Under the pieces are notes generated by a model that worked only from the letters and a program-made list of their open reading frames with translations, was not told the origin of the DNA and did not search any database. The position numbers and the translations under genes are program-made. This document shows positions 20,688 through 61,799 of a stretch of DNA of 64,000 bases, piece after piece (positions within the stretch are counted from its first letter, which is position 1; each line of letters starts with the position of its first letter). The DNA comes from Amoebophrya sp. A120 (lineage: Eukaryota; Protista; Dinoflagellata): contig CAJINV010000013.1 in assembly GCA_905178155.1 (NCBI GenBank), forward strand, positions 734,344-798,343, in the 5' to 3' direction.

Positions 20688-23600
20688 ATGCAGGACCTCC
20701 AAATGCAAGATCCAAACGACCACCGCAACCGTAATCCTTTCGAGGTGGAGCGACAGCGGCTTGAAGGAGTCAATGCTGGTGAACAAGAGGATGAAATTGA
20801 CTGCATGGTGGGCGGTCAACAGCATATTGGAGATGTTGAAACAGGTGATTATGATCCGGCACTGCTAGAGCAACCTCTAGATCATGAGCAGGCGTCAAAT
20901 AAGCGGATGCTAGACAGCACCACTTCCGACGACGCTGACTACGATTTTGACCAGGAGCTGGATCTGGACCAGATGCAAATTCAGGTAGACGAAAACTGCT
21001 CCTCTGCAGGCACGAGGACCACTGGTTGTACTATGGCAAGTAGTACAACAAGCAGCAACAACTCCGGGGGCGGTCGCTCCGACAAGGAGGCTGCGGATAT
21101 TGCGCAGCTCGTGTCTGACTGTTTCAGTTTCGACCCGGCAAAAGACAAAACCTCGTCCCTCGAGGAGGACAAAATATTAAATTTGGAGCAGGAACAAGAA
21201 AATCATAAGCAATCCAGCAGCAAGAAGAAGATTTCCACCGAACAATTGTACACCCCGTCCGCACAGCCGGTGCTAAAACCCTCAACATCTTCGAAGCCTT
21301 CCTCTGCGCAGCGGTCCCCGGCGGTGTCACCGCCGGCGGCGATGAACGAGGAGCAGATGAAGATCACGGAGTGGCTGTTCAAGAGTTGCGTCGGCATTCC
21401 GCATATCAACTGCAAAAATGTCTGGGTCTGGGAGATTGCGAGATAATTTGTCATGCTAGTCTGGCATGACTCTGAACTCTGTGTTGCATGTTGGCCGCGA
21501 AGAGCCCCTCCTCCTTGTCATGCAAAAACGCAGTTTCTCATGCGGAATAGCAACTCAGAAACATGAAAAAAACTTGTCATGCTTGGCAGCGCATTATAGT
21601 GAGTTCACTCTTCCCTTTCTTGCATCACAAGTTTCCAGACCCAGACATTTTTGCATTTGATACCGCAGCGGACCAGCATTTCGCCCTCGGTGTCCGTGTC
21701 GCCGAATTTGAACAACGGGAACAAGTATCAAATGCAAATACTTATGTCTGGGTCTGGAAGAATGCAAACTTGTGATGCGCATTCCAGAACACAGAAAAAT
21801 CTCTCATGCCTAGGCAGCAAAAGTTGCCCACTTTCTGTCTCGAAAGTCAGGGACTTGTCATGCGGATTCGGCATTGCGGGAGCTTCTCGAAACCTGTGAT
21901 GCTAGAGCTTCCACGCCAGACCTTTTGCGTCATGCAAAAACAGCATGACTCTTCCAGACCCAGACATTTTTGCAGTTGATAACAAGAGCGGTCGTGGCAA
22001 TAGCAAGAAGAGCGGCGTCAATTCTACTGCTGGTGGAGGTGGAAGCTGCTCCTCTTCTTCAAATCCAGCCGCGGATCGGAACAACGCCAATCTGAGTGCA
22101 ACGGAAATGAACAACATCATGACGCTGCTATGGCGTTCTCAACTGTTACATTCTCAACTGTTACATGAATTTGTGATGCAAGAATGGCAAAAGTGATAGG
22201 GGGGATCTTGCGCGTCTTGCATGACAGATTTGGAACCGATTGTCAGCCTGTTTGGCCCTCTGAGAATTTGTCATGCGAAGCAGCTTGATGGTGACGATTC
22301 TGAAGGCAATTTTGCATGACAAATCATGTAACAGTTGAGAATGTAACGTTTGAGAACGCCATAGCTGCTCACCGGCGGATGCAACAAGACTAGTACCAGT
22401 AGAACTACTGCAGGAGCAAATACTAAGCGGAACAATGCCGCAGGAACAAGTAGTAAGATCTCATCCAAGAACACAGCAAATTCCAACAGATCCTCGAGAA
22501 GCAGTGTCGTTGTCCAGAAACAGCGCAGCCTGCAGCAGGCATCAGGCCCGACTGCGGACGAATTCGATCCTGCAGCGATACCGATGGTCGGGGGCGGCGG
22601 GGAAAGCCAGGAGCATTCTTCCGATTCGAACGGAGCAGTAGAGCACCGAAACGGGGGCTCTCCAGCAATACTGGAGATCCCAGCCGGAGCAACGACCACA
22701 GGCGATCTGGATTTGGACGCGATTCTCGGTCTGACTGCGGCGCGCCAGCAGCAGCTGCAGCAATACGCCAACTACAAAAACAGTATTTCATCTTCAAGTT
22801 TAATACCAGGGTCGTCGCAGCATCATCAACAGCACTCGTCGAACAAGCAAAATCAGAATTTGATCAGTTTCAAACTGAACAAAACAGTGTCCAGCTGTTC
22901 TTCCGGGTCCACTGCCTGCAGTTCTGGTGGTTCTATGTCCACTGCGTCCAGCACCCTGGTGGACAGCGCTCGAACCACTCCGCAAGGTGCGCACGTAATT
23001 CACGGGACGACCCTGGAAACGCAGGAACAGGTGCAGCAGTTTTTGTTGAACGTGGGCGCGGGTGCCGCGTCGGTGCCCGTCCAGAACGTCGTCTCCGTGT
23101 CTCCGGTGCTGGTCAGCACCGAGAATGGATTGATGCAGGTGATTGACGGCACAACAAGAAGCGGGGCAGCTTCATCAACAACATCTTCCGGGGCTCCTGC
23201 ACCGGGAGGTACAGCTGCACCGGTACAACATCAAGTTCTTGCAAATCTAGTTCGCCAACCGAGCAAAAACAGCAATAAAACGAAGCAGGTGATCGCGCTC
23301 GGCGGGGGTGGATCTGGTGGTGCAAAGAAACAGAAGGTCGAAGAGGTACAGCAAGTAGGGGTTGTTCAACATCCACAACTTCCTCGTGGAGCAGGACAAC
23401 TGATCCTACACCCACCTCCTCCGGGAACAAGCACTGCTGCTATCAGTATGCTCCAGCAGCACCAGGATCTTCAGCTTCAGCGCACACACTCGCAGTCCAA
23501 CGTGTCGATGATATCAACCACCGCTTCCTCAACCTTCACCCAAACCGTCGAGGAGTACCACCGCGAGGCGGACAAGTACTCAGAGGAGTGGAAGAAAAAT

Positions 23601-25365
23601 CTTTTTCTCTCCCCCCCGCCGGAATCCCGGTTCGAGTGCTCCATGCAGGGAACGGACATGAACGACCAGAAGATGGCCACGTTCCACAAGTGGCTGAATG
23701 AGATTCTCATCGGGGTCACGCAGTCCAGAGGGCCCCTAGTGAATGCGATGGTCGATTTCTCGGGGAACCCCGACCTGACCGACATGGCTCTGCGGAAGTT
23801 GCTCGTGGTGTTGAAGCGATCCAAAGTGCACGTGAAAAAGCTGGTTTTGAACAAAACCGGGATTTCGGACGTCTCGATGCAAAATTTGTTGAACTTCCTC
23901 ACCCCGAAGAACAATAGTGGTCAACAGCACAACGCTGGGGTCGAAGGTGGAATTCTTTCGTCGTCGCAAAACCAGCAGCACCAGCGGCCGATCGAGCACA
24001 TCTGCTTCGAGAGTTGCCCGAACGTGACGGAAAACGGGGTCTTAATCCTATTACGACACTTCGACCAGAACCCGCTCTACCCAGTCCGGAAACTGTTGGA
24101 CAACAAGCACGGAAAGCAGGACGTGCAATACGAGTCGGTCAACGTTCAAGCGAAGGCGTGCGAGAACATGAACTACGTGAATTTGTTCAACCGCATCCAG
24201 ATGGTATCCACAGAAAAAAACCCATCCACATACATTTTTTGCATGACAAACACAGAGTCGTCGAAAACCGGAGTAAGAGGGGCCGTCGGACCGGGAAATC
24301 GCTTGCTGGTTAATATGTATGCGTGACAAGCTGGCTGCGTTTTGCATTCGTGGCAGTCCAGGAAAGAGGAAGAACTAGTGAAGCGATCGGATCGACGAGG
24401 TGCGTCAGGGGGCGTCACTCATTCATTCATTCATTCATGTATGTTTTGCATGACAAATTGGATGTGGATGGGTGTTTTTTCCTGGATAGATGGAGACGAA
24501 GTTGTCCTATTGCTTCGACGACCGCATCGCGTACAACAGGAACCCGCTCAAGTGTCCGGTGCTGATGTTCTCCGGCGGTCTAAACCCGGGGTACACAGGG
24601 GGAGCTGGAAGGAACAATCTACATCCCAATAGTGCAACTACGGCTACCTCTACGGCGGCGGGGGTCCTTCTTGCGCAGCAACATCAGAACATGATCGGAG
24701 CTGCGCCAGGTGCAGCAGGTGGTCTACAAAACTACAACCATCTTCCCGGAGGTTATAATCTTCCACCACCGCAGCTACAGGCCCAGTTCCAAAATGTCTA
24801 CACGGGCGCGATTGTGGGCACGGTTCCCATTGGACCTGAGCTCCACCACCTGGGCACGACGACTTCTACACTAAGTTCTTTCGGAGGAATGCAACACCAG
24901 CTTCATGCAGCGCAGCAAAACCACAGCTCCTACGGCAGTCAGACAAGAAGTTGCGCGAACCATGTCGACCCAAGCGCTAGCACTGCTGCTGGCACTACTG
25001 CAGCAGCTACCCGAACTACTACACCGGATCTCGAGGATCAGGACCCCTTGAAGGCGGTGCAGGACATCATCGGCGAGATCAGCTCGAGTACGAAGGCCGG
25101 TGGCAAGAATACTAAAGGCGGGCGGGGGAAAGACGGTGCATCTGGCGTCAATGCCACCGCCTTCCCCGGTGGAGGAGATCGCGGTACCGGGAAAGATTCC
25201 CATTCCGCCGGCTGTACTAATGGCGGGCGGTACCGCGCGAACAGCCACTGTCTGCAGATGGGCGATACCATCGGCCCGCCGCCGGGCAAGGGCGCGGTGG
25301 TGTCCGGAGGGAAGATCTACTACTCGACGCCAGCACCGGTGCAGGGGAATGGTATAAGTACATAG
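20688..25365 (+). CDS. Large protein with an RNI-like leucine-rich-repeat region; four introners
   Basis: ORFs 20688, 21651, 21945, 22584 and 24490 join in frame. LRR-like segments VDFSGNPDLTDMAL, LVLNKTGISDVSM and ICFESCPNVTENGV. The 3' end may include a further small intron. Confidence 0.8.
21404..21662. mobile_element. TAT..ATA introner, DR ccgca (family 1a)
   Basis: IR tatcaactgcaaaaatgtctgggtctgg / ccagacccagacatttttgcatttgata; removing 264 nt is in frame. Confidence 0.95.
21726..21981. mobile_element. TAT..ATA introner, DR acaag (family 1b)
   Basis: Family-1 TIR; removing 261 nt is in frame; the interior is the reverse complement of 36241-36495. Confidence 0.95.
22129..22363. mobile_element. 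TAT..ATA introner, DR gctgc
   Basis: IR of about 40 nt, tatggcgttctcaactgttacattctcaactgttacatga / tcatgtaacagttgagaatgtaacgtttgagaacgccata; removing 240 nt is in frame. Confidence 0.95.
24205..24488. mobile_element. TAT..ATA introner, DR gatgg
   Basis: IR tatccacagaaaaaaacccatccacat / atgtggatgggtgttttttcctggata; removing 289 nt gives RIQM|ETKLSY. Confidence 0.93.
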
Positions 25366-26401
25366 TTGTTGATATTTCATCTCATATCACAGTACACAGG
25401 CTAATATAAGACGCCCCTGAATAAATAACTAAGTGAGTACTTACAAACGCTTATGCCCATAGAGTTAGGACTGGGTTTGTTTCCAGTTTAGAAGACCAGG
25501 AAAGGAGCAGGACAGCTATCCGCCTAGATGATATGTAGAATAGCGCGTGCGCTCGGTTTTGTGCCCATTTGTCGGTTGCTTAGATAACTTTTGAAAATGT
25601 CGGCTCAACTTCTGGATTGGTGAGTTGTTGTCACCAAGATCCGCAATAAAAACAGTTCGATCTTGAGGTTCTTTCCGACTTTCTGTTATTGTGACTTTCT
25701 GTTTTCTGTTGATGGTCTGAGTTTTTCGTTTTTGCGCGATCCTTTTTTTGTTTTCCTCGAGGTCGAGCGAGGATACTTTTGTCCTCGATACGTTTTTCAT
25801 TTTTGTTTTCCACCGTGTGGACTTTTATCCTGTTTGTCACGTTTTGCTTTTGCTTGGTTCTTGTTTTCTTTCTTGCAGCTCCCTCTGAATGATCTTCAGT
25901 ACCGGCGTGACGTAGCGCACAGACCAAACCCGCAACTGCCCAGGAGGGAAGATTCGCATTACCAACGCAGCAGATTATGAACCAGGGAGATGAGTGCGAT
26001 CATCATCATGCTTATGATGAACATGAACTGTGAGACAAGGCTGTTGATGACCAAGAAGTCCAAGAGCACGTGATCATCATTCTCATCAGATTTGAAACAA
26101 ATTTACCACAATAGTTCCGCGCCACAACCTGAACCACCACGGATCATCCGCTTCGTCCTACGGCTCATATCAACATCACTCTACTGCGGCCTGTGCGGCC
26201 TCAACCTCCACGACTTTTCGGGCACCGACCGGCTCCCCGCATCACCACGCGTCGTCGAGTTCCTCAAGCTCTCTGTTCGGAGGACCATGCGCAAGTGGCC
26301 AGGCACATGAAGATGATCAACACCACGAAAGTAGCGCCGGGTTTTTTCCGCATGGAGATCCTCAACATGAACATGCTAGTGGAGACCAACATCATTTTTC
26401 T

Positions 26402-29034
26402 TTGTCTCGTGGCGTTCCCCACGGTGTTCAGCCTCAACATTCTCGCGGAGCAAACATGAATCGCAGTCGCGGGCGCTCTCGCTCGCGCATGCGCGGTCGG
26501 AGTCATGCGCGTGGAACAAGAGCACCAGGACGAGGTGGAATCTTCGGGAACCAGCTGCAGGGACAGCATCCTCAACAAAATGGTTCCAGCAGGAGTCGCG
26601 GCGGTAATAGGTCCAACAGCAACATCAAGTTTGTACCAGAATTATCTTCTCGGAGTGGGACGAGTACAACTGTCCCAGGCGTTGCTTCTTCGTCGAGCAG
26701 CGGTAATAGAGGGTCGGCACGTCAGGATCTGGGTTTGTTGCGCGAGGAGTTCCAGTTTATGGAGAATGAACACGAGGAGGATGTTGACCACCTTGGCACG
26801 ACCAGCAACACCGGCTACAGCGCAGGGATGATGTTGAAGGGAGCAGCTTCAGCCGAGCAACACGAAGAAGAAGAGTATGACCCGTTTTCCATGACACCTT
26901 ATGAGTCGAAGCTGCTCGATAAGGAAATTCAGCTGATGAAGATGGAAGAGCGGATGAAGGAACTAGAACGGGAAAATCAACAGAAGAGCAGCGGCGGTGG
27001 TGTTTCTATTTCCTCTTCTAGTACTATTCAACATGGCACAGCGAGTAACACCAGCACGAACACGCCGCGACATGGGGCGGCGGGTGATCTAGCGCTTGCC
27101 CAGGCTGCAGCGGCGCAGCAACAACAGCAGAACCGGAAGTACGAGCAGCTGTTGCTCGAGCAGCTGGTGCTTCGGAAGCGCGAACAGGAACAGCTGAAGA
27201 TGAAAAGCCAGGAGTTGGAGCTGTTGCAATCGAGACTGGGGTCGTTCGTCGCTGCGGGCGGCGGGATCATGAATAAAACAGGTGGAGCAGCACCAGCGGT
27301 TGGGGCGGGAGCAGCAACAGCATCTTCCTCGTCGGCGTCTACTACTGAGCTGGAGCCGCAAAGCGGTAATGGACAACAACTTCAACAAGCGTCCGCAGCC
27401 AGCAGAGCGGACGTTGTGAACGTGACCCGAACACTGGCGCGGAAGTGGATCAACCCCCAGAGCTTGTCCGTCGACGAAGACAGTTTGAAATGCCTGCCGT
27501 TTGTGAAAAAGGGAAAACTAGTGCGCAAAGTGAAGGAGATCACAAGTCCAGAAGACCCTCAACCGCAAATCAATCCCATCACGTCCATAGCGGAAGAACA
27601 GGAGGAGGACGTAAACGAGGAGGATTTGGACGGAGTGCCGCTTGAAGATCATCATGCCGTGGAGGTGAACATCAACAACAACATCGAGACTGGGTCACAA
27701 CCTCCAACGAGCGGAGAGGTGGACATCAAGATAATTGGTGAAGGTGACGTTGAAATGAAGGAGGTCAAGCAGACGTCTCCGCCCCTTTCCACCACAACCA
27801 CCCGAACTTCTTCTACCACCTGCACGAGCATCGACCACTCTTACTCGGAGGGCGGCGACGGAGGGAGTTCTTTTACGGAACACGACAACTCTGGACTCTT
27901 GCAGAAATCGCCCGAAGATCTTCTGGACCAGAATCTAAATCGTGAGGATCACGATCATCTCCAAAGGCAGAGTCTCAACTCGGTCGGTGGCGAGGAAGGA
28001 ACTAGTGAAAAGCAAGACGTCGAACAAAACCAAAACGAGAACGCCCATGCCAATCCCTTCCACATCAATAATGCTTTCCTTGAAGTCGTCAACCAGATGA
28101 AAACTACTTCCAGCAAAAGCGCGTGCTCTCCAGACTTGGAGCAGAGTGTGAGTTTCACGGCGAGTAGTTCGACGAACGCGACGAAGTCCTCGACGACGCA
28201 GCAGCCGAGCTTCACTGGACCACCTGGACAGGCAGAACCGCAAAAGAACAAATCGGAGGAAAAAAAAATGCACCAGGACCTGCGGATCCAGAAACCGACC
28301 ACCACAACCGTTCTGGAGTTCGACAACAAGAAACACGACGGCACCACTGTCATCCCCCCGGTGATGATTCGGAACGCTTCGTCGATTGTCCCCGTTGAGG
28401 AGCGGATGTCGAAGGAAAAACGGGAATTCGACCTGAAGACAGAGCAGTTGATCCATTCTGCGAAAGTCGCCAACAACGCCGTGAAGCGGAACGTCTTACC
28501 CCCGCCGCCGCGCACGCCGGCCAGCAACATGGCTGCGAACAACGGGGGCACGACCATCGGATTCTTTCCGAAAAATAACTTCGGTGGAGACGGAGCTGCA
28601 GGTAGTACTAGTAGTGCCGCTCCTGCTGTAGCTGCGGGGGAGCGGTCCAGTCGAAATCAGGACATCAACCGCATGAAGGACGGAAGCCGAAGCACGACGC
28701 ACAGGTCCTATCCCACCAGGAAGAAACTGTTTCACTGTGATGATTTTGCGGTAACGGTACCTACTTATCAACATCTGCAGCGTCACAAGTTTGTCACAAA
28801 CACATGAGGACAAAGAAAATTTTCCATGCACGCTTTCCAACAAGGGAAAACACCAGCACGTTTGAAAATCCAATGTCTTGCTGCAGGTGTTGCAAGACAA
28901 ATTTAATAGTTTCATTCTATGCATCACCATCACAAGCTCAACACATTGAAGCAGTTTTTTCTTGCGATAGATCCGCAACGGGCGGTAATAATGCGGTGAG
29001 CACGTCGGTTTTGAAACCGCCGGGACGGGCGTGA
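26402..29034 (+). CDS. Low-complexity / coiled-coil hypothetical protein; start and 3' end uncertain
   Basis: 801-aa ORF plus an in-frame continuation (RSATGGNNAV) after introner 28709. Confidence 0.7.
28709..28969. mobile_element. TAT..ATA introner, DR ggtcc/gatcc
   Basis: IR tatcccaccaggaagaaactgtttcactgtg / cacattgaagcagttttttcttgcgata; removing 266 nt gives an open frame. Confidence 0.8.
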
Positions 29035-29926
29035 GCGCTGATTTATTCACGGTAAATACAACATGACGAAATAAACGAGGAACTTGAACTTCGTGCACTT
29101 CAACGACTCTCTTACAACTACTCCGCAGTCGGTTTGCGAAATTGAGATATTTCGCAGCCGCTGCGCTTGAACTCTTCTTTTACGTCCGCAGTGCCGCATG
29201 AATGTGGCGTCTTTACGTCTTTCGGATTTACACAGAAAAGAAATACAACACTTACAACGAACTTTTGTCGGTCTTCGTTTCGTACAGTTTCAGTTTCCGT
29301 TTCAAGGCATAAAGCAAGATCAGCAAGTAGTAAACTCAGTAGAAAAAGCACGTGAAAATCTTCGAGAAAATCGGTTGAACTGAACTCCATTTCTAACTAT
29401 TGATGTCGTCAATGATGATGAAGATCAACATGTTGAAGCAGGTATGCGTTATTGAACTTTTGGACACTTTTAGAACTAGCACCAAAAATTTCCGGAGAAA
29501 TTTCAGTCGCACAAAGCCAAGATCATGAAGCAAGTACACCAAAATCTAGCGATTTCTTTAAAAAAGGCAAATAAAGATACAGATTGCACAGATTACAGCA
29601 CTTTTGATTTTTTCAGTATGCTATCCCTAAATAAAAATAAAGAGTAAAGTTGCAGTTGGAATGAGCTGGTGCTGCCTGTTCAGCGAAACAGTAAAGTTTA
29701 AGTATAGTTGTGATTGACATTGAGAAGAGCAAAAGCAACTGCGATTTAGCGAAAACTCATCCACAGCACCAGCAGCGAGCTTAAATTGATAAGCTAGTGG
29801 GCAGAGTAGGACCGCACACAACAGCAAGACTGTGCTGATGGAGTCAGACCTGCCATAATCTAGCGCTACTATTTTTTCATAAGATTGGATACTGTATTAC
29901 TGTTCGAATTTACTACCTCCTACAAG

Positions 29927-30690
29927 GCGCGGTAATCGGGCCACCGACAACTACGGGTACTACGCCGGCCGGAGCGGGAGGATGCCAGACCCACGGTCAA
30001 CACCTCACGACAGACCGCCAAGGTGATTATCATCAGGAACACCAACCACCACGCCACCAGAGCAATCACAATTACAACCACGGTGGGCGCACCCACCGGC
30101 ACAGCATGAGCATGAGCCGCGGAGGTGGGGGACCACGGAATCACAATCAGAACTATCAAAACGGGGCGACGTCCGGAGGTGGAGGCTCCATGAACAACAG
30201 TAGAATGTCACGGGCCGCGAGGCAAAGTGTCACACCCTACTACCGCGGTGCGTCGAGGGCGAGAGGCGGCGGCGGGAAGGGGTACCACCGCCCGGGTGGA
30301 GCTGGCAGTGGCGAGAATTACCACAACATCAACGGATTGATCGCTGGAACAAATGGAACCACAACCAGCGGTGGCACGTTCCGTATGAAGGACTATGTGG
30401 GAGGGAACAACCAGAACCAGCCAAGCGCCACTTTTGACCGTCACCACTACAACCAGAGAGGACACCAGCACGGGGCTGCGACACCAAGGATACAGCAACA
30501 TTGTTCCGGTCCTCGCGGTAATATCACATTGAGTGCAGGTTTCGCCAGTGCTGGTACCAACCCCTGCGCACCAGGGGATACAACAGAGCAACCGGCTTTT
30601 TCTGGAGGTCCCGCGTCGGCTTCTGTGGAGCACAGTCGGTCAAATCAAGCTGTAGGGCAGGGTACGTACAACCAGTCACCTGTTCTGTAG
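29927..30690 (+). CDS. Terminal coding exon, RG/N/H-rich; probably the 3' end of the 26402 gene
   Basis: The frame of ORF 30106 stays open upstream to an AG acceptor-like site at about 29926. Confidence 0.55.
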
Positions 30691-33020
30691 CAGGCGCGTC
30701 TTCAAATAGAAGAAGACGGAGGTAGATGTAGTTGTTCACTTTTTATTCTTCATGATGTAGCTCTCGGCCTATGTTCTTTAAGCCCCTCTGATGGCACTTC
30801 CCTCTCGTGATGCCGGATGAAGTGCTCGTCTTTAGAATAAACGGTCTTGTTAATGGTTAACCGAGCTTTTCTTGCTCTCTCCCTCCCTAGATTTCCGTCG
30901 TCGTCGCATGATTCTTTTGCATTTCGCTAGATTTTGACACAAAAATTCGAAAAATTTTCAGTGACTACAGATGAACCAGTACCGGTATAGTACTAAAGTT
31001 GCTTTTTCTTTGCTGTGCTGGGTGACACCAAGCCTGATGCTGATTCTTTCCACGCGCTGCACTTTGCCGACTAGGTTACGGTGTGGTGGCAGTTGAGCTT
31101 TTCCTTTTGTTTACTTTGCTACATCAGAAGATCAATTATCATCTTTTTCATTTTTATACAACGCTAGAAGGTACTCGTTGCAAAATAATCCTTTATCGAA
31201 AATTACTTTCTATGAGTGGTACTGGTACGCCTATCTTCAGAGCTCGCATTTGCCGCGGCTTCATCTTGAGCTGATTACAACCGTGTACGTACTTCTGAGG
31301 ATCTGGATCTTGACAGAGGGGCTGCTCTTCAAACATGAACGCTAAAAACTCCTGTAGAAGATCATGAGGTCGATGCGGCCGCGAAGCAGCAGGAAAAAAT
31401 TCACGTATTTGAAAACTCAGATGAAGACAATGGGGGCGTACGAGTTCCAAGTTTTTACAACATCAGTCTGCCAAAATGCTTCCAGTTCCATTTGATATAA
31501 GCAATAAAAGAAAAAGACCATCAATTAGCAACTTATCCTGCTCTGCGGACAGGAGCAAAAAATTTTAATTTTCATTACCTGCTAGAATTACAAAATAAAA
31601 CAGCACCTGAACTGCGCACAACGACACAGTTGTGTTAAGTTTAGTTTATCACAGTTCTTCTTCAAGTACATTTTGCAAGCGCGGTTAAGGTTGTGCCACC
31701 GCTGAATCAAATATGTTTTCGACAACTTCTAACGCTTTTGAAATTAGTTTCATCCAGATGAACGAAATAATTTATCAGGAGGACACAAAGAAGTGGAAGT
31801 AGGCATACTGCTAGCCGAGCGCCAGCACAAATTCCTTTGTGATGGTTGCTTCGCGACAGCTTTGCCGGAGAGAGAAATTCTACGCACCGTGGAGCAACAA
31901 GTTTACGTTTAGGATGAGGGAAACAAAGTTAACGTAGGATGAAGTTTTTCGGCCGGGTGATAAAGAAGTGGTAGACTGGTCGTGGACGGGAGGAGGGCGA
32001 GTTGTTGTCGAGGCAAGAAGCGGGTTTCTCCAGTAGTTCGAATCTGTTGCCTCACGACAACAACACTATCCCCCATCAGCGAAGGAAACGCCGGTCTACT
32101 CAGCCTTTTCAACTGTTTCGGATTTTGTTTTACTGATTCACTAGTTTCGCTTTCATTCTCTTTGACAACTGTTTTTGTAATGATAGAGCTCTTCACTTTG
32201 TTCCTTGTAATATTTTTTAATCGATAGTAGTTGTAGGAAGTAGGGTTTAGAAGTACAGGAATACAATGAAGAAACAGGAGTATGTAACACTAGGGCTTCT
32301 AGAAAAAATCGTTTCTGATCAATTTTGAAATTGCGGAAACACAAAAGTAATTATTCCTCTAGGCGAGCTTGAAAGAAAAAGATCTTTTTCGGTGAACTGT
32401 TCAACTTTTGGGCAAAACTCAAACTACTATAGTCTTGTCGAAACTCAAAAACAAAAAAACACAAAAAAAAATACAAACAAACAAGCTGTGATGCAGCGGT
32501 TCCGGTTCGTTGAAAAAGCAACAGTTCGTTGAAAACAGACTACAAGACTTTTCGTCCTCGTCCTCGAGCTGTCATTCGGTTTCGCTTTCTTTCGCTTTTA
32601 ATCACCTACCGATGCTGGGACCTGTTCCACGGAACTAACTACGTACAGGGTTGAGGCTCGACGCTGCCTCTTACCAGTCGGATGAGATGATCAAGGAAGA
32701 TCAAAAGTAGTTGAGTTGTGCCAGTCGGATGTGGATGTGCAACGACTATGAGGTGATCTTGATTGTGTAGTTCCTTTTATTTTTCAAAGATCCTCGAAAA
32801 ACAAAAGGAAAAACCTTGATGTTCGCTCGCCGTTCCTCTACTGCGCAGCTTTTCCAACCAGAAAGGTTTTTCATTTCGGATCAGTATTTTTATCCACCCA
32901 GATGATCCTGATCATGCACTATCAACAAGTTTGAACTACAACTACATAGAAAGCAAAACCCTGCACGAGAAGGAGCACGACAAGCAAAAAAGAGTGGTAC
33001 TTCCGCGAGACAAGAAGAAG

Positions 33021-34984: not shown

Positions 34985-35689
34985 AAATGCAACTAGACAG
35001 GAGTTAGAGTTAGTCCGCATGCTCTCGTGCGTGCTTGTGCACTGTATGCCTATGTGGTGGCTGTAAGAAGACCGACCTTGTAGGTCATTGATACATGATC
35101 AAGGGTATGCGGTGAAGGATTGTACGTAAAACTTAATACAACTGCCGGAGATCATGCCAATGCCTCCATCAAGCGAGCCCATAAAGAAAATTGACGCGTC
35201 TTGGTCTTCTACAACTGACAGCGCGTTCTTCGTGTCCGCGAAGAACGCGCATGCGATCGATGTTCGTTCTTCCTCGTCTTCCTGTGTGTGAAAAATCTAT
35301 AATCGCCGACATCAGCAGGGGGAGCGTTCTTGTTATCCGATGCGTTTTGTCGTCGCCTGTATCGTGAAGAAGAGGGAAGATCATGAGAGAAACAGAGAAA
35401 ATAAACTAGGAGAAGCTCAAGGTCGTTTGCATAGAGTAGAAGTAGTCGGAGTGATTCGTATTGTCAATTGACGACTTTACTTTATCTCGTTAGCCCGTGG
35501 GTTGGTCTTGCCAGGCTGCTTTTCAACGTTTTCACACCATCAAGAGACGACAAATCCGCGTGTAGCTAGAGCATGCCCAAGCAATTGCATGCGAGAACTC
35601 ATACACTCACACACTTTTGCGCCGGAATACAGGAAAACAGTCTCGACAGAGGTTCATCATAGGAGAAAAGCAATACCAATATCGTCAAG

Positions 35690-45200: not shown

Positions 45201-45718
45201 CAGGAGGTGGAGTGCAACCTGGTGCAGAAGCAGGAGCTCAAGGCACTACAACATCTTCTACTCCCCTGCCCGCCGGCGCCGCCCCGCTGGCCCTTACTCC
45301 CAAGACAGCGTTCGAGATGAATCCGCAGATGAATAATAATAAACTAGTTGCCGCAGGAGGTCGCGGTGGCACTGGCACCGTCGCCGCCCCCGCCCTCGTT
45401 CCGGTTATAGCAGTGAGAATGGGCGGCTCTTCCAAGAAATCCCGTGGAACGATGAATGCGGTTGAACCAGGAGACCAACCTAGTCCCATTTTTACGAGTC
45501 CCTCCGCAAGCAGGCAGGGATCGAAAACCGCGGCTCCCGACCACCGCGGCGCGCCAGTAGAACAACCCGATCTGGGGGTTCCAATTACGGATCCGTTGTC
45601 GGACCTTATTCAGCTCGGAGGTAAACCCCGCCCACCAATCACTCGCGATGCCTACTTTACGTGGGACAAAACCAACGACACGTTTGCGAAGCCGGCGTAC
45701 TCGTTTGAAGACCGATAA
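39214..45718 (+). CDS. Large predicted membrane protein; five introners plus unresolved introns around 44600-44920
   Basis: ORFs 39121, 42088, 43543 and 44315 join in frame. The transmembrane helix AVWIVGGVVLF|LLVVCFAIGLAVYYW is reconstituted across the 41591 insert. The link to ORF 44903 is inferred. Confidence 0.72.
41237..41445. mobile_element. TAT..ATA introner, DR tcctt (family 3)
   Basis: IR tatccaagaaaaaaacattg / caacgtttttttcttggata; removing 214 nt opens the frame. Confidence 0.94.
41591..42382. mobile_element. Long TTA..TAA introner variant (792 nt), DR tcttc
   Basis: IR aaaaaaatccatccgctcaacggctcccaaaatgtttg / caaacattttgggaaccgggctcggaatggattttttt; removing 797 nt rejoins a transmembrane helix. 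Confidence 0.87.
42939..43246. mobile_element. TAT..ATA introner, DR gccca (family 2, inverted relative to 33791)
   Basis: IR tatggaagcgtcagg / cctgacgcttccata; removing 313 nt opens the frame. Confidence 0.95.
43320..43598. mobile_element. TAT..ATA introner, DR cccct
   Basis: IR tatcctgagtaaaaacgtacccacaccagag / ctctggtgtggggacgtttttactcaggata; removing 284 nt joins to ORF 43543. Confidence 0.95.
43837..44246. mobile_element. Diverged family-2-like introner with an altered left end, DR gccat/gccaa
   Basis: Left end ggaagatatggaagtgtcacgtgtgaaatcgac, right end gtcgatttcgagcctggcaccctgata; removing 415 nt joins to the frame of ORF 44315. Confidence 0.7.
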
Positions 45719-50170: not shown

Positions 50171-50866
50171 TATGCTTCAGGACATTTCCACTCACGACAG
50201 ACTTCTTCCGCAATATGACTATGATGTATCTATGAGCTTTTACTAGTTATGTACACGACTGAGACCGATTTTTTTTTGAAAAGATGAAGATAACACTATC
50301 TGGTCGAGTCAATTGATCTTCGTCATTCATCATCACACCTCTGGAAAACAGAATATTCCGTCAGAAAAAAACCAATATGATGATGGATGTTCTTTTTTCT
50401 TGTTCGCCTCGGCGCTGCACTACTACTAGAAGAGTCGTGAACCAAAAAATTCAATGACCGCGTAAGGTGAAGCTCTTGATCCATTGATTTGAAGAGGAAG
50501 AGTGAGAGCCGTGGTTGTGTTGGTGCTGGGTTGGGATCTGTCTATCAACATGTAAGAACTCAGAGTCGCGCAGTACCAGAGCCTAAAGCTTTATTCATGT
50601 TTACCCGCGCACTTCCCATTTATCATTCGGTCAGATTTGATTTCTATTGTTTCTGCTACTGGGACGTGATACTATTTTCCGTTTGACGTCGGTTTGGTTG
50701 TGTTGCTGTTGTTGCTCCTCCACCTCCACTAGTGTGTGGTAATATTACAGACCGAGGTTGGCGATGGAACGTCGCAGCTTAGCAGCTCATCCCTTCGCAG
50801 CTTTTTTGTTATTAGTAATAAAATAGAAACATACCATTATGAGTTTCATATGGCTACGGGTTTCTA

Positions 50867-53798
50867 ATGTCCATGATGACCCACGAACTCATATATTGTA
50901 GTGAAGTAAACGACCAAACTTTCCGAACTGGAATCGACGAAAAAACTAAGTACGAAAGCAACGAATATCAATACCAAAGATGCCCTAGTAAGTTATGCAT
51001 TCCTTGCACAAGCCACGTCGATTCTATTCTTGTCTGGAACGGAAAAACAAAAATCTATACTAAGTGGGCAAATCCAATCTCATGCAAAACGAAAAACGTA
51101 ATATATGCAATGCAGTGCACCCACTGTGCTTTGATTTACATAGGCCAAACCAAAAACATGCTTCGCGAGAGGTTTTTCGACCACCGTCAAAAGCTGAACG
51201 AAGCCTACGAAGCACGACTTTGGCAAGATTTTTCTGGAATTAGGAAAAAGCATAGCGCAATACTTTATCATCATTTTGCCCGATGTCCGGGTAGGCCGCG
51301 GGTCATGCCTGTCAACATCACTTCTTCATCTGAGCTTCTCACCGAGCTCGAGGAAAAAATGATGTGCTACGCCCGTTCCTTATTTCCATATGGCCTAAAC
51401 GATAAATACCAAAAGAAGTATATGAAAGTACACTTTGGCTCTTGTTGTGTATTTCAGATTTTTCGTTCCGTGGCCCCAATTTCCAAGAAAAGGTTTCGGG
51501 GTACGCGGAAACCTGCTCGTGCGATAACGGCGCAAGATTTCATGAAGCAGGTGGATGCCATTCGGAAGGCCTCCATCGGTACACAAATGAAAGATTTTGA
51601 TGACAGGTTGCGCGCTTATATTTTTGGGCTTTCATCTTCAGTTTTGAAGTCATTTCTCTCTGATACTAGCCTTAGTTTCAATCTCCAAAAACGAGAACAG
51701 CATGTGCTTTTTGATTTGCTAAAAACTAAGCTTGCCCCTGACGAAAAAGTAAAGCCTAAAAAGAATGGCATAAACATACAGTGTTTCTTTCCTAATAAAG
51801 TTATGGAGTGCTTAAAAATTGAAAGCGCTCTTGCCGACGCTAACAAGGCATTCCCCCTTGCTGGTAGTCGACCTATGTTGGTATACAAATATCCTCCCCC
51901 ATGTAGGTGGATATACTCTTACACAAAAACCTGCAGAAGTAGCACCCTTGATAAGTGGACTAATATAAATTCCTTGCCGTGTTTTTGCAAAAGAAACGAA
52001 TTCAGTAAATATCGATCAATTCCAGGCTCTACAGATCTACGTGAGCATGTAATTACAGGCGACTCGTCGATTTTATGTGAGCCCGCTCTAAACATCGATG
52101 CCAGCCCGGAAGAAGTTTCCAGGCTGGCAGAGATTGTTTCGAGGGGTGCCAAGTTTCGATTTCCAGATGAAGAATTTTCGCAGCCCGAGGATGTAGTAGA
52201 AAAATGCATCCGGTCTCTTTCTTCCGCATTAGAAACATGCAAAACGAAACTGATCGAGAAGAACAAGAAAAGCATTACTAACGAAAAAGTAAAAGAAGTA
52301 GACGCATGGGCTTCGCAAATACTGGAGAAAGCTCGGAGTAACACGGGGGCAGCTCTCGCTTCCTTCGTGCCTTCCGAGAACTTGCAACGACTTCAAGAAA
52401 TAATGAAAAAAGTACATCAGAGGCTAGAGATAGTTTATACTGACAAAGCACCTGCAAGCCCTGCGATTTTATGTAAGCGACATTTTTCCGCCGAGGTTCG
52501 GCGCGAATCTGAAAAAGCTAATATGTATGAAGAAATTAAAAACGTATCTGTGGACGATATTGCAAAGCAAGAGCAGGAAAAGACTAAGCCGATTCATGAA
52601 AAGATCGAAACCCCTCCCAAGCTTCCCTCTGTGGTGCTAATTCCGAAATTGCATAAAGTAGGTATACGCTTTATATGCACGCCCACGAAGCACACAGTGA
52701 CTCACCCGCTTGCGCGGATGGTTTCTGCGTTGCTTGCCCATATCGAAGAGTACGAAAAGAGATACGATAAAACCGGACACCATGTGTTCGGTTAGCCGCG
52801 GTCTTATATTGCAGTTAAAAGCACGGACGAAGCATTGGAATTGCTTCGTAAATTCAAGGCCGAAGTCAAGTCCATCAGTGGCGAAGACTTCGACAAGTTA
52901 TTTGATAATATAGATTTAGACCGGGCCTCTAGTTTAGTTCGACCGCTTATCACAGACATTTTTACCCGCGCTGCAGACAAAAAGGACCCGCAAGCAGTTA
53001 AATACCTAACTTTTTCCAAAAACGGCAAGCATTGCTACATAGCCAAAAAAGCGGTCCGAGTCTCTAGTGTCTTTGACTTTAGAAGAAACCATCGAAGCCT
53101 TCGAATTCATATTACGGAGGCAATTTATACAAATTGGCAAGCGTGTTTTTCGACAGCTATGCGGAGCCCCGATGGGTTCAAGCCCTGCCCCGCGCTTAGC
53201 CAACCTGATTCTTTTTATTTTGGAAAGGGCCTACATCTTGGCCCCAAGCAGGGAAAGGGCTAAGGTGTGGGGGGATAGTTGTTTTCTAGTATTGCGATTC
53301 CTCGACGATGTTTTTTCCTTGAATTTAGACTATGGCGCGCTTGTAAAAATAATTTACCAAGTCCCGGAGGACAAAAAGCTGAAAGCTACTGCGTCAGCAG
53401 TAGTGAGTAATAAACTACCATTTTTAGATATAGAAGTAAAGAAAATGGGACAGAAGATATTTTTAAGTACCTACGACAAGCGAAATTTCTTCGGATTTCG
53501 CATAAATCGGCTCCCACATTGGGAGTCATGCCTTCACGAAAAAACGATTTGCGGCACACTAGTGTCGCAATTTCTCCGTGCGGCGAAGTTAAACGATGGC
53601 GAGCGTGGCCTGCAGGAGCACTTGAAGACGCTTCTAAGGGCTGCGCGGTTTAACTGTTACCCGCTTAGAATTTTGCTCGAAGCTGCCGCCAAATTTCAAA
53701 AGCGCCATGCGTATAAGTTTGTAAAACGACTCCAATGCCTTCATAATTTTGCAGCCCTAATAACTGACATAGATAAAGAGATTAGCGTAGTTGCTTAG
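50867..53798 (+). mobile_element. Penelope-like retroelement, GIY-YIG endonuclease N-terminal to RT; disrupted by an in-frame TAG at 52793-52795 and a frameshift at about 53040-53067
   Basis: CKTKNVIYAMQCTHCALIYIGQT…RERFFDH…YHHF…PYGLN (PLE-type GIY-YIG). RT motifs PKLHK..RFI, DFDKLFDNI, QLCGAPMGS, RFLDD, LPFLDI and YDKR. Confidence 0.92.
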
Positions 53799-55840: not shown

Positions 55841-56312
55841 CCCCGCAGTCCTTGTGCCTTTCTTCCGCTGTCTCCACCTCCGCCGCTCAACCCAAGGTTG
55901 ACGATGACAAGATAGAGGCAGCTCTCTTCAAATATGATTCGATAAATTAACTGAAGTACATGTGTTCTATTCCTCTTCGCAAGCATTTTCACTCGGTGTT
56001 AGTATCGTTTTCTTCAGCTAAAGCTAGTATTTCCGTCTTCTGTCTGAGAGAACATATATTTTTATTTTTGCATGAAGTATGCGTCTTCTTCTGTCTTCTG
56101 AGAGTCCAGAAACCTTTATTTTTGCATGACAGAATGTTGAGCGACTACTTTAATTCTCGAGAGGGTTTCATTCTTTCCTGCCGTTGAGCATCTTACTCTA
56201 CTGCTTCATGAGAGATTTTACATTTCATTACTTCTATTTCTAATGACAAATTTTGCATGACAAACTCAAAAGCACGAGACTCTCCTGGGGATCAACTTTT
56301 AGAAAGCTAAAC

Positions 56313-56329
56313 TTTTTTTTTTTTTTTTT
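56313..56329. repeat. Poly(T)17 tract
   Basis: Directly visible. Confidence 0.9.
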
Positions 56330-57650
56330 GAAAAATGCATCTATTCCTCCTTCACATAAATCCACGAATGTGTAAATTGTTATAACAGGCGCCATCTATG
56401 CAATATCTGTTCATACCATGATCCTCATGAGAGAAAAAAGTAAGTGAGAGACGAGAGCAGCGCTGCGCCGTCTCTTCGCACCCACCGGCTTCATCTTGCG
56501 GAGTTACAAATGGCTGGAGCCGCGGATCATGATCGGTCTGCTCCCCGTAGGCAAACGGGGGGTAGGTTTAGGCCGGCGCTTAAGGCGTAGGTGAAGACGT
56601 TCATCACCAGCAGACCACCAGAACGCAAAAAATGAAACGCTCTGCTCATCCCTTTTCCTCCTCTTCCTTCATTTCTGTCATGCTTATTTTCCTTTCTGCA
56701 CACAGATGCCCTCTATTGCTTTCGCCCCTGAACAATGATTCCGTTTCCAGATTTGAACCAACCCATGAGTGCAAGTTCCACACTATAAATTCTATTTTTC
56801 AAAACAGAAAAAGCTTTCTTAGCGTAGTGCTTTTTATATTTATTTGTAGTTTTATGTTGTTTACTTCAAATGCTATTATTGTTGTAACTCTATTAACATT
56901 CGTGTCGTGGTGTACGTCATGGTCATGATCGGGGTCGTCAAGAACATTGTAGCTCCAGCTTATTCAGGTGCAACAGTTGTCCGTCGTCGTTTCGGATCGG
57001 TATCCTATCAATGTCCTCTCGTTCCTGCTGCTCCGTGAGTTAGTCTACAACGAGCGACGAAACTACAGTGAAGACGAGTTAGTACAGGGTTGTGCTGGTG
57101 TTGATTTTTGTCGTGCTAAGCCGCTAAGAGTCGGAAACGTGATACGATCCGTCGTTGCAAGTAGACTCAACCAGCAAATCGAAAAAAGTTAATCAGGGTC
57201 GTACACAGTAGTAGTACCTCACTCATTTTGATAAAAATAAACGAGCTGAATATTAGTTCGTGACACGTCATTGGGGTGGAATCGGAAAGTCAAAGTGGCT
57301 AGCAAGGAAAAGGGAGGACGAGCTCCAGTAATTTGGTCCACTCTTCGTTGCGAGCCGTAGCCTGTAGACGTAGTCGAGATAATTTTCTTCAACGACGGCT
57401 ACTGTCATGCAACTCAGTCACCCGCCACTGCATACTATTTATTAGTTTAAGTATAATTAGTTAATTTTTTTTCCAATAATTTTTCAATCGACAAGAGAAA
57501 GACAAAAAGCTGAACTCATCGCATCGCCGACGTCCCCTGCTTGTGGTTTTCGAACAGCAGCTGCCTTTCATCTTGCGAATTCTCGCCACGACTCCGTCAC
57601 TCAAACCACAAACCTGCGCCTGGTCTTGCCTCGTATCAAGGAAGACGATC

Positions 57651-60600
57651 ATGAAGAAGTCCTCTTCTCGTTCTCCCTCACCCATGAAAATGGGAGTGGC
57701 GTCGTCCGCATCCTCATCTTCAGTGATGAAAAAGATGACATCGACGACGTCGCCCAAAAATATCCACAGTAAATTTCCCGTACGTGCATCTAGGTACAAA
57801 TGCGGTTCTTTCCGCGTGACAGAACTTGTCTTCGGTCCTGCTTACTACACTTTATCTCTAAGTTGGCGAAATTTACTTGTGAAGATGCATTTTGTACGTT
57901 TACGGGATCGGGAAATTTGTGTTGCATAAAAAATGGCGCAACTACTACATCAAATGGCAACCTCCACCGGCCGGTCCGGTCCTGCCGCACCGATCAACAA
58001 GCGGCCGCTTCGGCATCTTCAAAATCAATGTCGATGTCTATGAAGCAAGCTCCGTCGCCGAAAATGATGCAGCATTCTATGGCGAGCAAGTGCATGAACA
58101 TGAAACAAGCAAAGTTGCCACAGCTCCCGGCAGTACCGATGAAGTCGCCGTCTCCGATGAAGAACTGCTCCGGTGCTGGAACGACATCTGCTACTACTTC
58201 ATCATCTAAACCTGCGAAATTGCCGAGATTACCAGGAGACCACGGTGCATCAAAGCGGTCGGCCTCCAGTGCGATGAAGAAAACTTCCTCTAGTATGGTG
58301 AAGAAAAAACAACTGAAGCGCAGTAATTCCGCCCCCGCGCCGGCGTCGTCGACAAACAAGAAGAAAAGTAGTAACCCCGGAAGTAGGACATCAACAATTT
58401 TGATGAAAAGCAAGCCCGCTAGTCGTGAAAAGGAAAAGATGAACAAAAAATCCGCCTCTTCACCTGGCAGAACAAGTTCTGCCTCTTCTTCGCCAGCTCC
58501 GTCGAAAAGATCGAGTTCGACCCCAAGAAAGGACACAAAAAAACCGACCACCCCCGCACCGAGTGCTGCTAGTAGTGCGGAGAAAAAGAAGAAGTCTTCC
58601 GCATTTTCGCCTGGTGCGATCGCGCCGTTGGTGCAACACCCGGAGGCCAACCACAAGACGAAGCGGCGAGACCAGGTTTTCAAGAATCTCAACGAGGAAC
58701 TCATGAGAGTAATTCCACCTCCTTCGAAAAATAATCTAAATTCCAATTCGGGGGATTCTGCTGCGACTACTTCATCATCATCTACGGGGCCGCGGCAGCA
58801 GCAAAATTTCAGGCATGAACTTCTACAACAAGACGATGATCAAGACGACCCCATGGACGTGGATTCGCACCATGAGAAATTTGCTGCCTTTGCTCTCGAG
58901 GAACCACTTCCGGAAGAACAGGAGGACCGGAAGACGAGCAATTCATCTGTTGCGAAAATCACCAGAGGAGCAGGTCCTGCACCTGCAGTAGCTTCCTCCG
59001 GTAGTAGTTCTAGCTCCTCGAACAAGCGGAGCCGAGGGTTAGCGTTTGATGCCGGCTGTGGAACGCAGGTTGGCGTAACATCTGCTCGGAATAATAAAGC
59101 TAGTCCTGTTTTGGCTTTGCACCCCTCGGATCATCAACAGCACTCCTCTAATATTTTTACGGGAGCTGTTGAGCCAACACCGAAAAAATTGAAGAGCATT
59201 TTGAAGAGTCCGGAGAAGTCCTCTACTTCGAGCGTTGCTCTAGACGGTTTCGTCGGAACGGGAGCGGCTTCATCCTCCTCTTCCTCCGCCGCCGCCGGTG
59301 TTAGAGAACTTGTTCCAGCTTTTGACCCGCCTCAGCGGTCGACGAAAATGAATAATTCATCAACCGCAACTACATTTTCGAAGCAGCAGCAGACCACGAC
59401 ACAACACCTCGCGAACATGAAGTCCGCCTCCTCTCCGTCGAAGTCCAAGTCCCCGCAAAGATCAACCTCGAAATCAAAATCCAAATCGCCGCGAACATCC
59501 TTGGTGGGTACGGCTGCGAAAAACAAGAGCGGCGCTAGCTCATCTGCTGACACGCTTGCCGCACTTGCTGCGCAAGCACAGGCGAAGAAGAAATCGGTGC
59601 AGTTTGTGGAACGTGGTCCGGACGTATCCTCCTGTGCAAATGTATCGTACTCGTATAAATGCTTGCTTTGCATCACAGATCCAGTAGCTTATCTGAATCA
59701 GCATGACAAATTGCATTTTTGCTTTTCGGAAAAAATTGTAATGCGATTTATACTAGTGCGATAGTTTTGCAATGCATAGGACGTTTTCAAATACGATGAT
59801 GTGTACGACGACGGGTACGGAAATCGCCGGGCTTGGTTATGACACCCTCAGAATGGAAATCCTCAAAGTGGAAATAATTTGTGATGCATGAAATGCGACA
59901 CCAAAAAGACTGTATTGCAGAGAACGCAATGGAGGCGGATTATTATGTTTCTACGGGTTCAGAATTGGGCTGCTGATTAGCATGAGAGAAGGGCACCCCT
60001 TTGCTTAACTAGCATGACAGACACGTTTTGAGCGCCCGGGGAATTTGTCATGCGCCGACTAGAAATAGCGCTCCAACTGGAGTCGTTTTTTTGCATTACA
60101 AATCATTTCCACTTTGAGGATTTCCAACCTGAGGCTTTCATATTGGTTCCAAGGACCCTACGAGCACCAACAAACGCAACTGGATTTTTTGGTACACAGA
60201 TTTCTCTTTAATATGCTCTCTTGGAGCAAGAGCAACTACATGCTCTACAGATCATTTCTGGTGGTTGTCACACCTTAACTTGAGCTTGCCCTCGTAGAAG
60301 TACTGCTCGTGCTCCTCCACCTCCTGCTGCCTCTTGCATTAATGCACATTCGTGTGGTGAGGGTGAGCAGCAGGAGCAGCAGCGCTGGGTCTCCTATGGC
60401 CACATTCCGCTTTAGAAGATGAAAACCAAACGGAAAGGTGAAGATTGAACGCATATATAAAATTATACTCCAACACAAACAGTTCGGCTGGCCGGAAGAC
60501 TGGGAGCGGGAACAGGTTTACGAGAAAAACCAGCGCTATGGATGTGTCAGGATCGAAATCGACAAAATCGAAAAACTTGTGATGCATAAAATCGATACCA

Positions 60601-61799
60601 GTTGGAGCCTCAGTTTCCGAGTGGCGCGTGACAAATTTCGGGAACGCCCAAATCCAGTCTGTCATGCTGTTTGGGCAAAAAATGCCGCTCCTGTCATGCT
60701 ATTCCGGCAGCACATTGCATACCCCTAAACAGGCTTACAATCGGCCTCATTTGCCTGCTCCCCAATACAGGCCTTCAATGCCCTACATTTTATGCATCGC
60801 AAGTTTTTCGATTTTGTCACTTTCGATCCTGACACACTCATAAGCGCTATCCAGATGATGATGATGTACGTTCGAGTTCCTGTGAGGTTCGGTTGGGTTT
60901 GTTTGCATTGATCACCAGGAGCATGACCATCATCATTTAAAAAGATGATCATGATGAAATAAAAGGACGGGTGCGCTTCGCCGTGTTTCGTTCAAAGCAC
61001 CACAATCATTCAAGAGCAAGCCAAGCAAACCCTTCCTCAGAGGAAGAACAACGTCACTTCTCCCCTCCACAGCCCGAAGCGGCGTGAGAAGTTTTTCCAG
61101 CTCACGAACGGGCTAGGTGTCGGTGGGTCAGGTGAGGCTTGGGGTGACGAAATGGATCCGAAGCAAACGGACGAGCAGGACCTGTTCGGCTCGCCCCTGA
61201 AATTCGAGTCCTGTGTATCCAAGAAAAAAACGTTGTGAGTGTAAATTTGTGATGCGCAACATGCAAAGCGATTGCGTCTCTCATGCTTGGCATGCATCGC
61301 AGGGTCCATTCAGCGGCGTTTTCTCGTACTATCTGCGCATGACAGGTTTTTGCTGTCATGCCAGACAAATTTGTAATGCTGTTCCTCCAAAAAGTTCCAC
61401 CTACAATGTTTTTTTCTTGGATACTGTGCGGAAGGCGAGGATGAAACGAGCAGTAGTCCGTTGCAGCAACGGCATGTGCCCGTGTCGCAACTACAACAGC
61501 AGGCCGCGAACACGACATCTACTCCCTCGGCTGGTGTTGGTGGAACGGTAGTTCTTGGCGGGGGCAGCAGCAGCAGTAGCTCCGCAGCGACAAACACCTA
61601 CAATTACATGCAGCAGGAGCAGCAGCAGACCCAGACGTACAACAACTCTACTACTACTTCCGGGACCACGTCAAGAGCGAACACGACCAGAGCACCCGCG
61701 CCTGGCCCGTCGGCCGGGGTGGAGGAAGTCGTCGGCTACCTAGTGAATGAGCATGAACAGCATGGAAAAGCAAAGGGCAAGGGACAGCAGCGCTTCTGA
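57651..61799 (+). CDS. Basic Ser/Lys/Met-rich protein; five introners plus probable GT-AG introns (about 60193-60437 and 60866-61040)
   Basis: ORFs 57543, 57800, 60438 and 61461 join in frame after removing the inserts. Confidence 0.75.
57761..57928. mobile_element. TAT..ATA introner, DR aaaaa
   Basis: IR tatccacagtaaatttcccg / cgggaaatttgtgttgcata; removing 173 nt gives SPK|NGATT. Confidence 0.88.
59625..59778. mobile_element. TAT..ATA introner, DR ggacg (family 4, inverted relative to 33575)
   Basis: Its reverse complement begins tatgcattgcaaaa like 33575; removing 159 nt is in frame. Confidence 0.9.
59838..60142. mobile_element. TAT..ATA introner, DR ttggt (family-2 related)
   Basis: IR tatgacaccctcagaatggaaatcctcaaagtggaaat / atttccactttgaggatttccaacctgaggctttcata; removing 310 nt opens the frame. 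Confidence 0.92.
60537..60842. mobile_element. TAT..ATA introner, DR agcgc (family 2)
   Basis: IR tatggatgtgtcaggatcgaaatcgacaaaatcgaaaaactt / aagtttttcgattttgtcactttcgatcctgacacactcata; the interior is collinear with 42939. Confidence 0.94.
61216..61423. mobile_element. TAT..ATA introner, DR ctgtg (family 3, inverted relative to 41237)
   Basis: IR tatccaagaaaaaaacgttg / caatgtttttttcttggata; removing 213 nt is in frame with ORF 61461. Confidence 0.95.

Follow-up and report, generated by a model that had tools for sequence, protein, structure and literature searches.

The stretch analyzed here, 64,000 nucleotides (nt) of contig CAJINV010000013.1 of Amoebophrya sp. A120 (positions 734,344 to 798,343; hereafter, the window), carries five host genes interrupted by introners, repeated elements with inverted ends that behave as introns. 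The elements were removed at the RNA level whichever way they were inserted, and five informative junctions supported a single cut register, 1 nt before the terminal TAT and 4 nt after the terminal ATA. In exon-query protein searches, the exon translations were 100% identical to the A120-annotated proteins CAD7966192.1, CAD7966195.1, and CAD7966199.1. Host gene 1 (coding span 20688–29031) encodes a protein of 2087 amino acids (aa) with no Pfam family, and its spliced model agreed with CAD7966192.1 letter for letter over 2087 aa. Host gene 2 (33021–34981) encodes an aldo-keto reductase (PF00248) annotated as CAD7966195.1, and host gene 4 (39214–45715) encodes a 1359-aa protein annotated as CAD7966199.1. 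Host gene 3 is an open frame at 35663–37865 after the elements at 36241, 37198, and 37507 are taken out; its strand was assigned by open reading frame (ORF) only, its contig-supported part giving 423 aa on the + strand versus 224 aa on the − strand. Host gene 5 is an 877-aa open frame (57480–61796) spanned as a whole by a single 4200-nt contig. All five host genes were on the + strand, which was fixed by GT..AG introns for three of them and by ORF or annotation for the other two. The canonical GT-AG introns were located on the + strand at 25352–26114 (run X1, contig record 1), which set the strand of host gene 1, at 60192–60482 (joint in four of four runs), which set that of host gene 5, and at 34497–34662. 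The last was recognized in the sequence, is skipped in CAD7966195.1, and also has the introner geometry, G-TAT...ATA-TCAG.

Transcript contigs were taken from four runs (X1–X4) of one study comprising two samples. Their RNA status was guessed, and they were treated as transcript-derived because GT-AG introns were missing from their contigs. The annotation and the four runs may share source data and therefore do not count as independent evidence. The aldo-keto reductase gene was thinly covered in run X1. Run X5 was DNA-like. The contig of host gene 1 ran about 3.4 kb beyond the stop codon at 29031 (28972–32437), reflecting either a long 3′ untranslated region or a merged neighbor.

The elements have TAT...ATA ends, long terminal inverted repeats (TIRs) with arms of up to about 55 nt, a 5-nt target duplication, and a length of 154–308 nt. 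When a 5-nt duplication with at most one mismatch and a TIR score of at least 20 were required, 21 TAT...ATA pairs were found in the window, compared with 0–3 in each of 20 shuffles. The duplication was exact in eight of the nine copies named in an earlier note on this DNA, the ninth (36241) having one mismatch (TGCGA/TGCGG), and it showed no sequence preference, all four bases being found at each of its five positions. A sub-terminal motif, TGYVATGC, and its complement occurred 66 times in the 5,299 nt of the elements versus 14 in the remaining 58,701 nt. A was the commonest base at element positions 11–15, and family B (see below) fitted this A run less well. An Rfam scan of the window at the gathering threshold gave no match, and no transposase Pfam match was found among the 11 window proteins scanned, no genome-wide search for an autonomous partner with the same ends having been made. 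Copies of the sub-terminal motif outside the element list were located at 3402, 3634, 51106, 56124–56676, 57403, and 62081; some of these lie near weak inverted repeats (51088–51467 and 56363–56904) and possibly mark more decayed elements.

The earlier note had reported four families with reverse-complement copies inside + strand genes. Orientation was judged on TIR-free interiors because inverted ends match either way round. Family A comprises the introner at 21726–21981 (duplication ACAAG) and the reverse copy at 36241–36495; they were 88% identical over 260 nt by BLAST, with an interior z of 24.7 in reverse versus 0.9 in forward alignment. Family D comprises 41237–41445 (TCCTT) and the reverse copy 61216–61423 (CTGTG), which were 88.5% identical over 209 nt by BLAST, with an interior z of 28.1 versus 3.6, respectively. 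In family B, 33791–34096 (TTGAT) showed 75% and 72% identity by BLAST to the reverse copies 42939–43246 (GCCCA) and 60537–60842 (AGCGC), respectively; the interior z values were 20.4 and 19.1 in reverse and 2.7 and 0.7 in forward alignment. A further family B copy, beyond the list of the earlier note, was found at 59838–60142 (TTGGT), in the same orientation as 33791 and opposite to 60537 (z 14.9 versus 2.1). Family C, consisting of 33575–33733 (TCGCT) in the aldo-keto reductase gene and the reverse copy 59625–59778 (GGACG), was the weakest pair, with a full-length identity of 68% in reverse versus 64% in forward alignment and interior z values of 6.0 versus 2.7 with a 25-nt trim and 4.2 versus 3.2 with a 35-nt trim. 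All of these copies are given on + strand coordinates. The four families were thus borne out by BLAST and interior z, family C less firmly than the others. The statement that the same element works as an intron both ways holds insofar as both orientations were lost; the reverse-complement pairs are family members at 68–89% identity, not identical copies.

Further TAT...ATA elements with 5-nt duplications were located at 3949–4169, 8636–8958, 13482–13803, 22129–22363, 24205–24488, 37198–37418, 37507–37766, 43320–43598, and 57761–57928. Among them, 24205 and 57761 were skipped in contigs, and 22129 and 43320 were missing in annotated proteins. The elements at 21404 and 37507 are same-orientation relatives. 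Within 21404–21981, the elements 21404 and 21726 have common ends, and their outer arms, on either side of a 58-nt exon, are identical over 28 nt; mis-pairing would skip this exon, which is kept in the annotated protein.

All nine named copies were gone from transcript contigs or annotated proteins, yet they were present in the genomic DNA. At 59625, 59838, and 61216, the joints 59619>59779, 59832>60143, and 61210>61424, respectively, skipped exactly the element plus 5 nt in four of four runs, and a single 4,200-nt contig held these three joints together with the strand-fixing GT..AG intron. Among the contigs of run X1, one skipped 36241 plus 5 nt (joint 36235>36496), and others skipped 24205 and 28709 likewise. 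The loss of 21726 (not in CAD7966192.1), 33575 and 33791 (not in CAD7966195.1), and 41237 and 42939 (not in CAD7966199.1) was read from annotated proteins. Near 41237, a contig piece stopped at 41231 while the contig went on.

A hairpin between direct repeats is a known substrate of skips by reverse transcriptase, and the contigs were of the cDNA type, not direct RNA. It is nevertheless highly improbable that the joints are such skips. The long frames required the loss of the element plus 5 nt and were broken by the loss of the element plus 4 or 3 nt; six other aldo-keto reductase homologues, aligned out of seven found, were gap-free across the 33575 and 33791 junctions only once the elements had been removed; and the 540-nt joint described below shares no letters. 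The other reading that dispenses with splicing, in which the elements are cut from the DNA somatically or at a particular stage and leave one duplication copy, is the least credible of all those considered. Precise excision would indeed take the element plus one duplication length, and the absence of empty-site joints in run X5 is known only among the matches listed and is thus unproven. However, a single 9182-nt piece of run X5 spanned a canonical intron as well as the entire 28709 element, unspliced, and other pieces of this run extended into 33575, 36241, and 41237 at a flat depth of 42–44. Moreover, the contigs without elements were also without ordinary GT-AG introns, and the 540-nt joint is no excision product. 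Since the elements were absent from transcripts or proteins and present in DNA, removal takes place at the RNA level, not by DNA excision, and the DNA-level alternative that the earlier note had offered found no support.

One named copy departed from the simple pattern. At 60537, which lies at the 5′ border of a longer, non-canonical intron, the main transcript lacked 540 nt (60536–61075, + strand), from 1 nt before TAT to 4 nt after ACA. This main joint, 60535>61076, was observed in four of four runs, shares no letters, and gives the in-frame 877-aa ORF; the intron ends 3 nt past an unused CAG. Exact removal of the element plus duplication (joint 60531>60843, 311 nt) was observed in two of four runs with only a 26-nt side, which is below the 31-letter requirement of the joint-finding tool, and gives a truncated ORF of 738 aa. 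Accordingly, the claim that all copies restore the frame by one rule held for eight of the nine and failed at 60537, where exact removal truncates the protein. Because another TAT follows the duplication, 60537 likely landed at the 5′ border of a pre-existing non-canonical intron (60847–61075), so that 60536–61075 is probably a young introner nested in an older intron, the minor form keeping the older part. The far 3′ site ends in CCACA and pairs at five of six positions with the 5′ UAUGGA of the element at the usual offset. The 540 nt may be lost in one step via this far partner or in two steps; both yield the same product. A canonical intron from GTGAG at 60882 to CAG at 61072 was considered and rejected, since its frame does not agree with that of the observed joint and none of the contig joints showed it.

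To place the cut, imperfect duplications were used because a perfect duplication hides it; k denotes the number of letters of the left duplication copy retained in the exon. At the introner 28709–28969 (+ strand), with the mismatched duplication GGTCC/GATCC, the contig joint 28705>28972 gave k ≥ 2. At 36241, the joint 36235>36496, with no other letters, gave k ≤ 4, i.e., the cut was not after the fifth duplicated letter (one contig). For the decayed B-like introner 43843–44246 (diverged duplication GAAGA/GCCAA) and the GT..AC intron 44548–44955 (G-TAC...ATA-TCAC, weak TIR), both on the + strand, the annotated junction residue R gave k = 4 or 5 in each case; the ends of the decayed introns at 43843 and 44549 were placed by eye. 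At the 540-nt joint, the cuts are placed exactly 1 nt upstream of TAT and 4 nt downstream of ACA. The five informative junctions are all satisfied by k = 4 alone, and the intron therefore reads N-TAT...ATA-NNNN, with one duplicated letter at its start and four at its end. A GT..AG register (k = 1) for 28709 was ruled out by its contig joint, and a common canonical GH..AG register for all copies was ruled out in that only 3 of the 21 elements offer such a pair.

As a consequence of k = 4, T (U in RNA) is placed at intron position +2. In our own set, T occupied this position in 22 of 22 cases at k = 4, by construction, and in 0–7 of 22 at other registers. The text of the A120 genome paper describes no clear terminal signature at non-canonical introns, and in its Table S4 all nine predominant non-canonical motifs begin with GT, CT, AT, or TT (Farhat et al. 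2021, PMC7789003); the fixed register accounts for the NT with which each of these published motifs opens. At the other end, none of the 21 elements has a terminal AG at k = 4. With six registers allowed, a GH..AG pair was available in one of the nine named copies and 3 of the 21 elements, and in none at k = 4; the idea that removal leans on something symmetric was thereby strengthened.

On balance, the A120 introners are probably cut from pre-mRNA by the cell's own spliceosome, relaxed in its requirements and reading the symmetric ends. N-UAU would act as the donor, its +1 position being unconstrained and its U at +2 retained, and the 3′ cut would be measured from the AUA at the foot of the terminal stem, not set by AG. 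Any branch point in use would fall within the sub-terminal repeats, the GCAUBRCA-type motif being the likeliest site. To judge from the literature, insertion would be carried out by a DNA transposase without orientation constraint, and the loss of the element plus 5 nt would bring back the original coding sequence at any target site. Continuity with ordinary introns is consistent with this: three of three canonical introns examined start with GTAY, and two of the three have AYA at −7 to −5. According to the text of the genome paper, 15% of canonical A120 introns have the same repeat layout, and A120 has 83 of 89 spliceosomal proteins, only U1 small nuclear RNA (snRNA) being undetected (PMC7789003). 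As a precedent, the TIR introns of Fritillaria, with non-canonical ends, are described as spliceosomal (PMC11282704). Also in line with this reading, end pairing into terminal stems is predicted on both strands in 17 of 21 elements, and the family A pair folds at z −5.8 and −7.9.

Several observations weigh against such a spliceosome. The introners have no AG at their 3′ end, a CAG preceded by a pyrimidine run is left unused 3 nt upstream of the cut that ends the 540-nt intron, and the strict branch-like motif is absent near the 3′ end of several copies. A stem starting from +2 would hide the donor region unless unwound. The non-detection of A120 U1 snRNA (PMC7789003) counts on this side as well. 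The part played by the stem is conjectural: the ratio of G-U to A-C mismatches in its arms, as read on the transcribed strand, was 11:9, 24:14, and 33:27 (p = 0.41, 0.07, and 0.26, respectively), and the fold of 60847–61075, whose ends are unpaired, does not surpass that of shuffles (z −1.4). Of the five junctions that define the register, two are single contigs of one run and two are annotation residues at decayed ends, and the joints come from the four runs of one study, taken as RNA by guess and perhaps sharing data with the annotation.

Some of the same features would suit a non-spliceosomal endonuclease and ligase that recognize the foot of the terminal stem, cutting 1 nt upstream and 4 nt downstream of it, as is suspected for the nonconventional introns of euglenids, although we regard this as a rather unlikely alternative. 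The duplication has no dinucleotide requirement, all four bases being found at each of its five positions; the CAG close to the 540-nt cut is ignored; and the far CCACA pairs with the 5′ end of the element at the usual offset. Long stems are available on both strands, but they say little on the role of the stem because TIRs yield this pairing for free. In euglenids, the paired intron ends lie at fixed offsets and the introns are released as circles, as described in PMC11282704, and U1 snRNA is undetected in A120 (PMC7789003). On the other hand, U is kept at +2, as in GU donors, canonical introns have the same geometry, decayed introns keep the same register although their ends pair weakly or not at all, and the A120 spliceosome is nearly complete by the published inventory (PMC7789003). 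In its broadest form, in which a direction-blind ruler, not the standard spliceosome, cuts tens of thousands of A120 introns regardless of junction letters and orientation, the proposal is similarly doubtful. If it were true, any such insertion would be a perfect intron at once, and nested ones such as 60537 would be peeled stepwise.

The decayed introns bear on a third possibility, namely that removal is spliceosomal and the stem is a relic of transposition, with only N-UAY, AYA-N4, and the sub-terminal branch motif being read. Both 60847–61075 and 44548–44955 fit the end motifs without good stems, the G-U bias in the arms is not significant, and a short inverted repeat is reported as detectable in just 30% of A120 non-canonical introns (PMC7789003). 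Nevertheless, three-letter motifs carry little information (TAY and AYA occupy 2% and 3% of positions, respectively), and partial pairing with the arm of the new element would account for the 540-nt joint as well; we therefore consider this explanation improbable, and a relaxed spliceosome reading the symmetric ends remains the preferred one.

Other features were observed elsewhere in the window. A long CA/CG microsatellite with an 8-nt period occupies 120–550. Open frames at 50843–53795 contain a GIY-YIG domain (Pfam E 4e-5) and, downstream of it, a GAPMGS-type stretch that resembles a reverse transcriptase motif and has no Pfam match; they are possibly a broken Penelope-like retroelement. 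In host gene 4, a 792-nt element at 41591–42382 has other ends (TTAAGG...CCCTAA) and the duplication TCTTC, contains an 84-nt palindrome (41864–41947), and is missing from the annotated protein; its start, TTA plus a purine, is like the motif given for strain A25 (Farhat et al. 2021, PMC7789003).

The window elements are the published A120 introners. As described by Farhat et al. (2021, PMC7789003), these have inverted repeats consisting of TAT, seven looser nt, and an A run (AAA), with direct repeats of 3–5 nt, and number 29,850 copies in 1,954 families with a mechanism given as unknown; 97 identical pairs are also reported. The two sets agree in organism, inverted ends, direct repeats, non-canonical junctions, hairpin, and RNA-supported removal, and the published length is about 240 nt (PMC7789003). 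All five traits of A120 introners, i.e., genome location, inverted-repeat ends, direct repeat, non-canonical removed junctions, and repeated copies, were found here, and many further family copies with other flanks were present in the sequencing runs. The searchable text of that paper does not discuss orientation and presents splice sites as variable relative to the hairpin, whereas in our small sample both orientations occurred, with a single register. In the literature covered, neither point was found to be stated for A120, although such a statement may stand in the figures and supplements of PMC7789003, the supplements of the PNAS introner surveys, the Curr Biol version of Roy et al., or Huff et al. 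2016. In the passages covered of those PNAS surveys (PMC9860276 and PMC12130899), orientation appears mainly in the methods and none is stated for Amoebophrya, and the passages covered of PMC8469720, PMC11453091, PMC12787238, and bioRxiv 10.1101/2025.08.15.670264 hold nothing further on it.

Introns in either orientation are on record for other algae: for classes 1, 2, 3, 6, 7, 8, and 10 of Polarella glacialis in Roy et al. (bioRxiv 10.1101/2020.10.14.339549) and, by the citations of Huff et al. 2016 in that preprint and in PMC10228655, for Aureococcus anophagefferens. As in A120, these are TIR DNA-transposon derivatives that serve as introns either way and lose one duplication length with the intron. 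By these accounts, they recruit GH and AG from the element or the duplication and need particular targets, whereas the A120 elements need none, and a GH donor with an AG acceptor was available in only 3 of 21 elements in any register. The conflict that the earlier note had seen between directional spliceosomal signals and bidirectionality was put too strongly, because either-orientation introns have been published for these two algae, TIRs give the same end on both strands, and the first T of the TIR falls at +2 like the U of GU. Two-way insertion in A120 is thus a real feature of a known system and less anomalous than had been held; the observation was partly confirmed, and its interpretation was partly supported.

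The euglenid nonconventional introns resemble the A120 elements in their fixed-offset paired ends, non-canonical junctions, duplication-like repeats, and probable origin from miniature inverted-repeat transposable elements (MITEs), as summarized in PMC11282704. They differ in pairing CAG at +4 to +6 with CTG at −8 to −6, a pairing that was absent from the window elements, versus TAT at +2 to +4 and ATA at −7 to −5 in A120; circular excision products have been shown for euglenids (PMC11282704). The introns of Fritillaria borealis are likewise MITE-derived, with TIRs, a duplication, and non-GT-AG ends (PMC11282704, bioRxiv 10.1101/2025.08.15.670264), and are reported to be removed by an adapted U2 spliceosome (PMC11282704). 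The sections of these sources dealing with F. borealis give preferred ends AG-AC and AG-AT and a preferred TAC target, and its lineage is unrelated to A120 (PMC11282704, bioRxiv 10.1101/2025.08.15.670264). Of the traits of U2 introns, the window elements have U at +2, which follows from k = 4, and none of the 21 has a terminal AG.

How A120 splices the 60–65% of its introns that are non-GT-AG is posed as an open question in the genome paper (PMC7789003). Orientation independence and the fixed 1/4 register narrow this question and predict the place of every junction, and the orientation-blind rule explains how coding sequence can be invaded at any site and in either direction with the protein unchanged. 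The elements are on record already, as are the either-orientation introners of other algae; what is gained is a more precise rule for a known system, and the 1/4 register, fixed, orientation-blind, and AG-free, is a useful addition through which the splicing question becomes testable.

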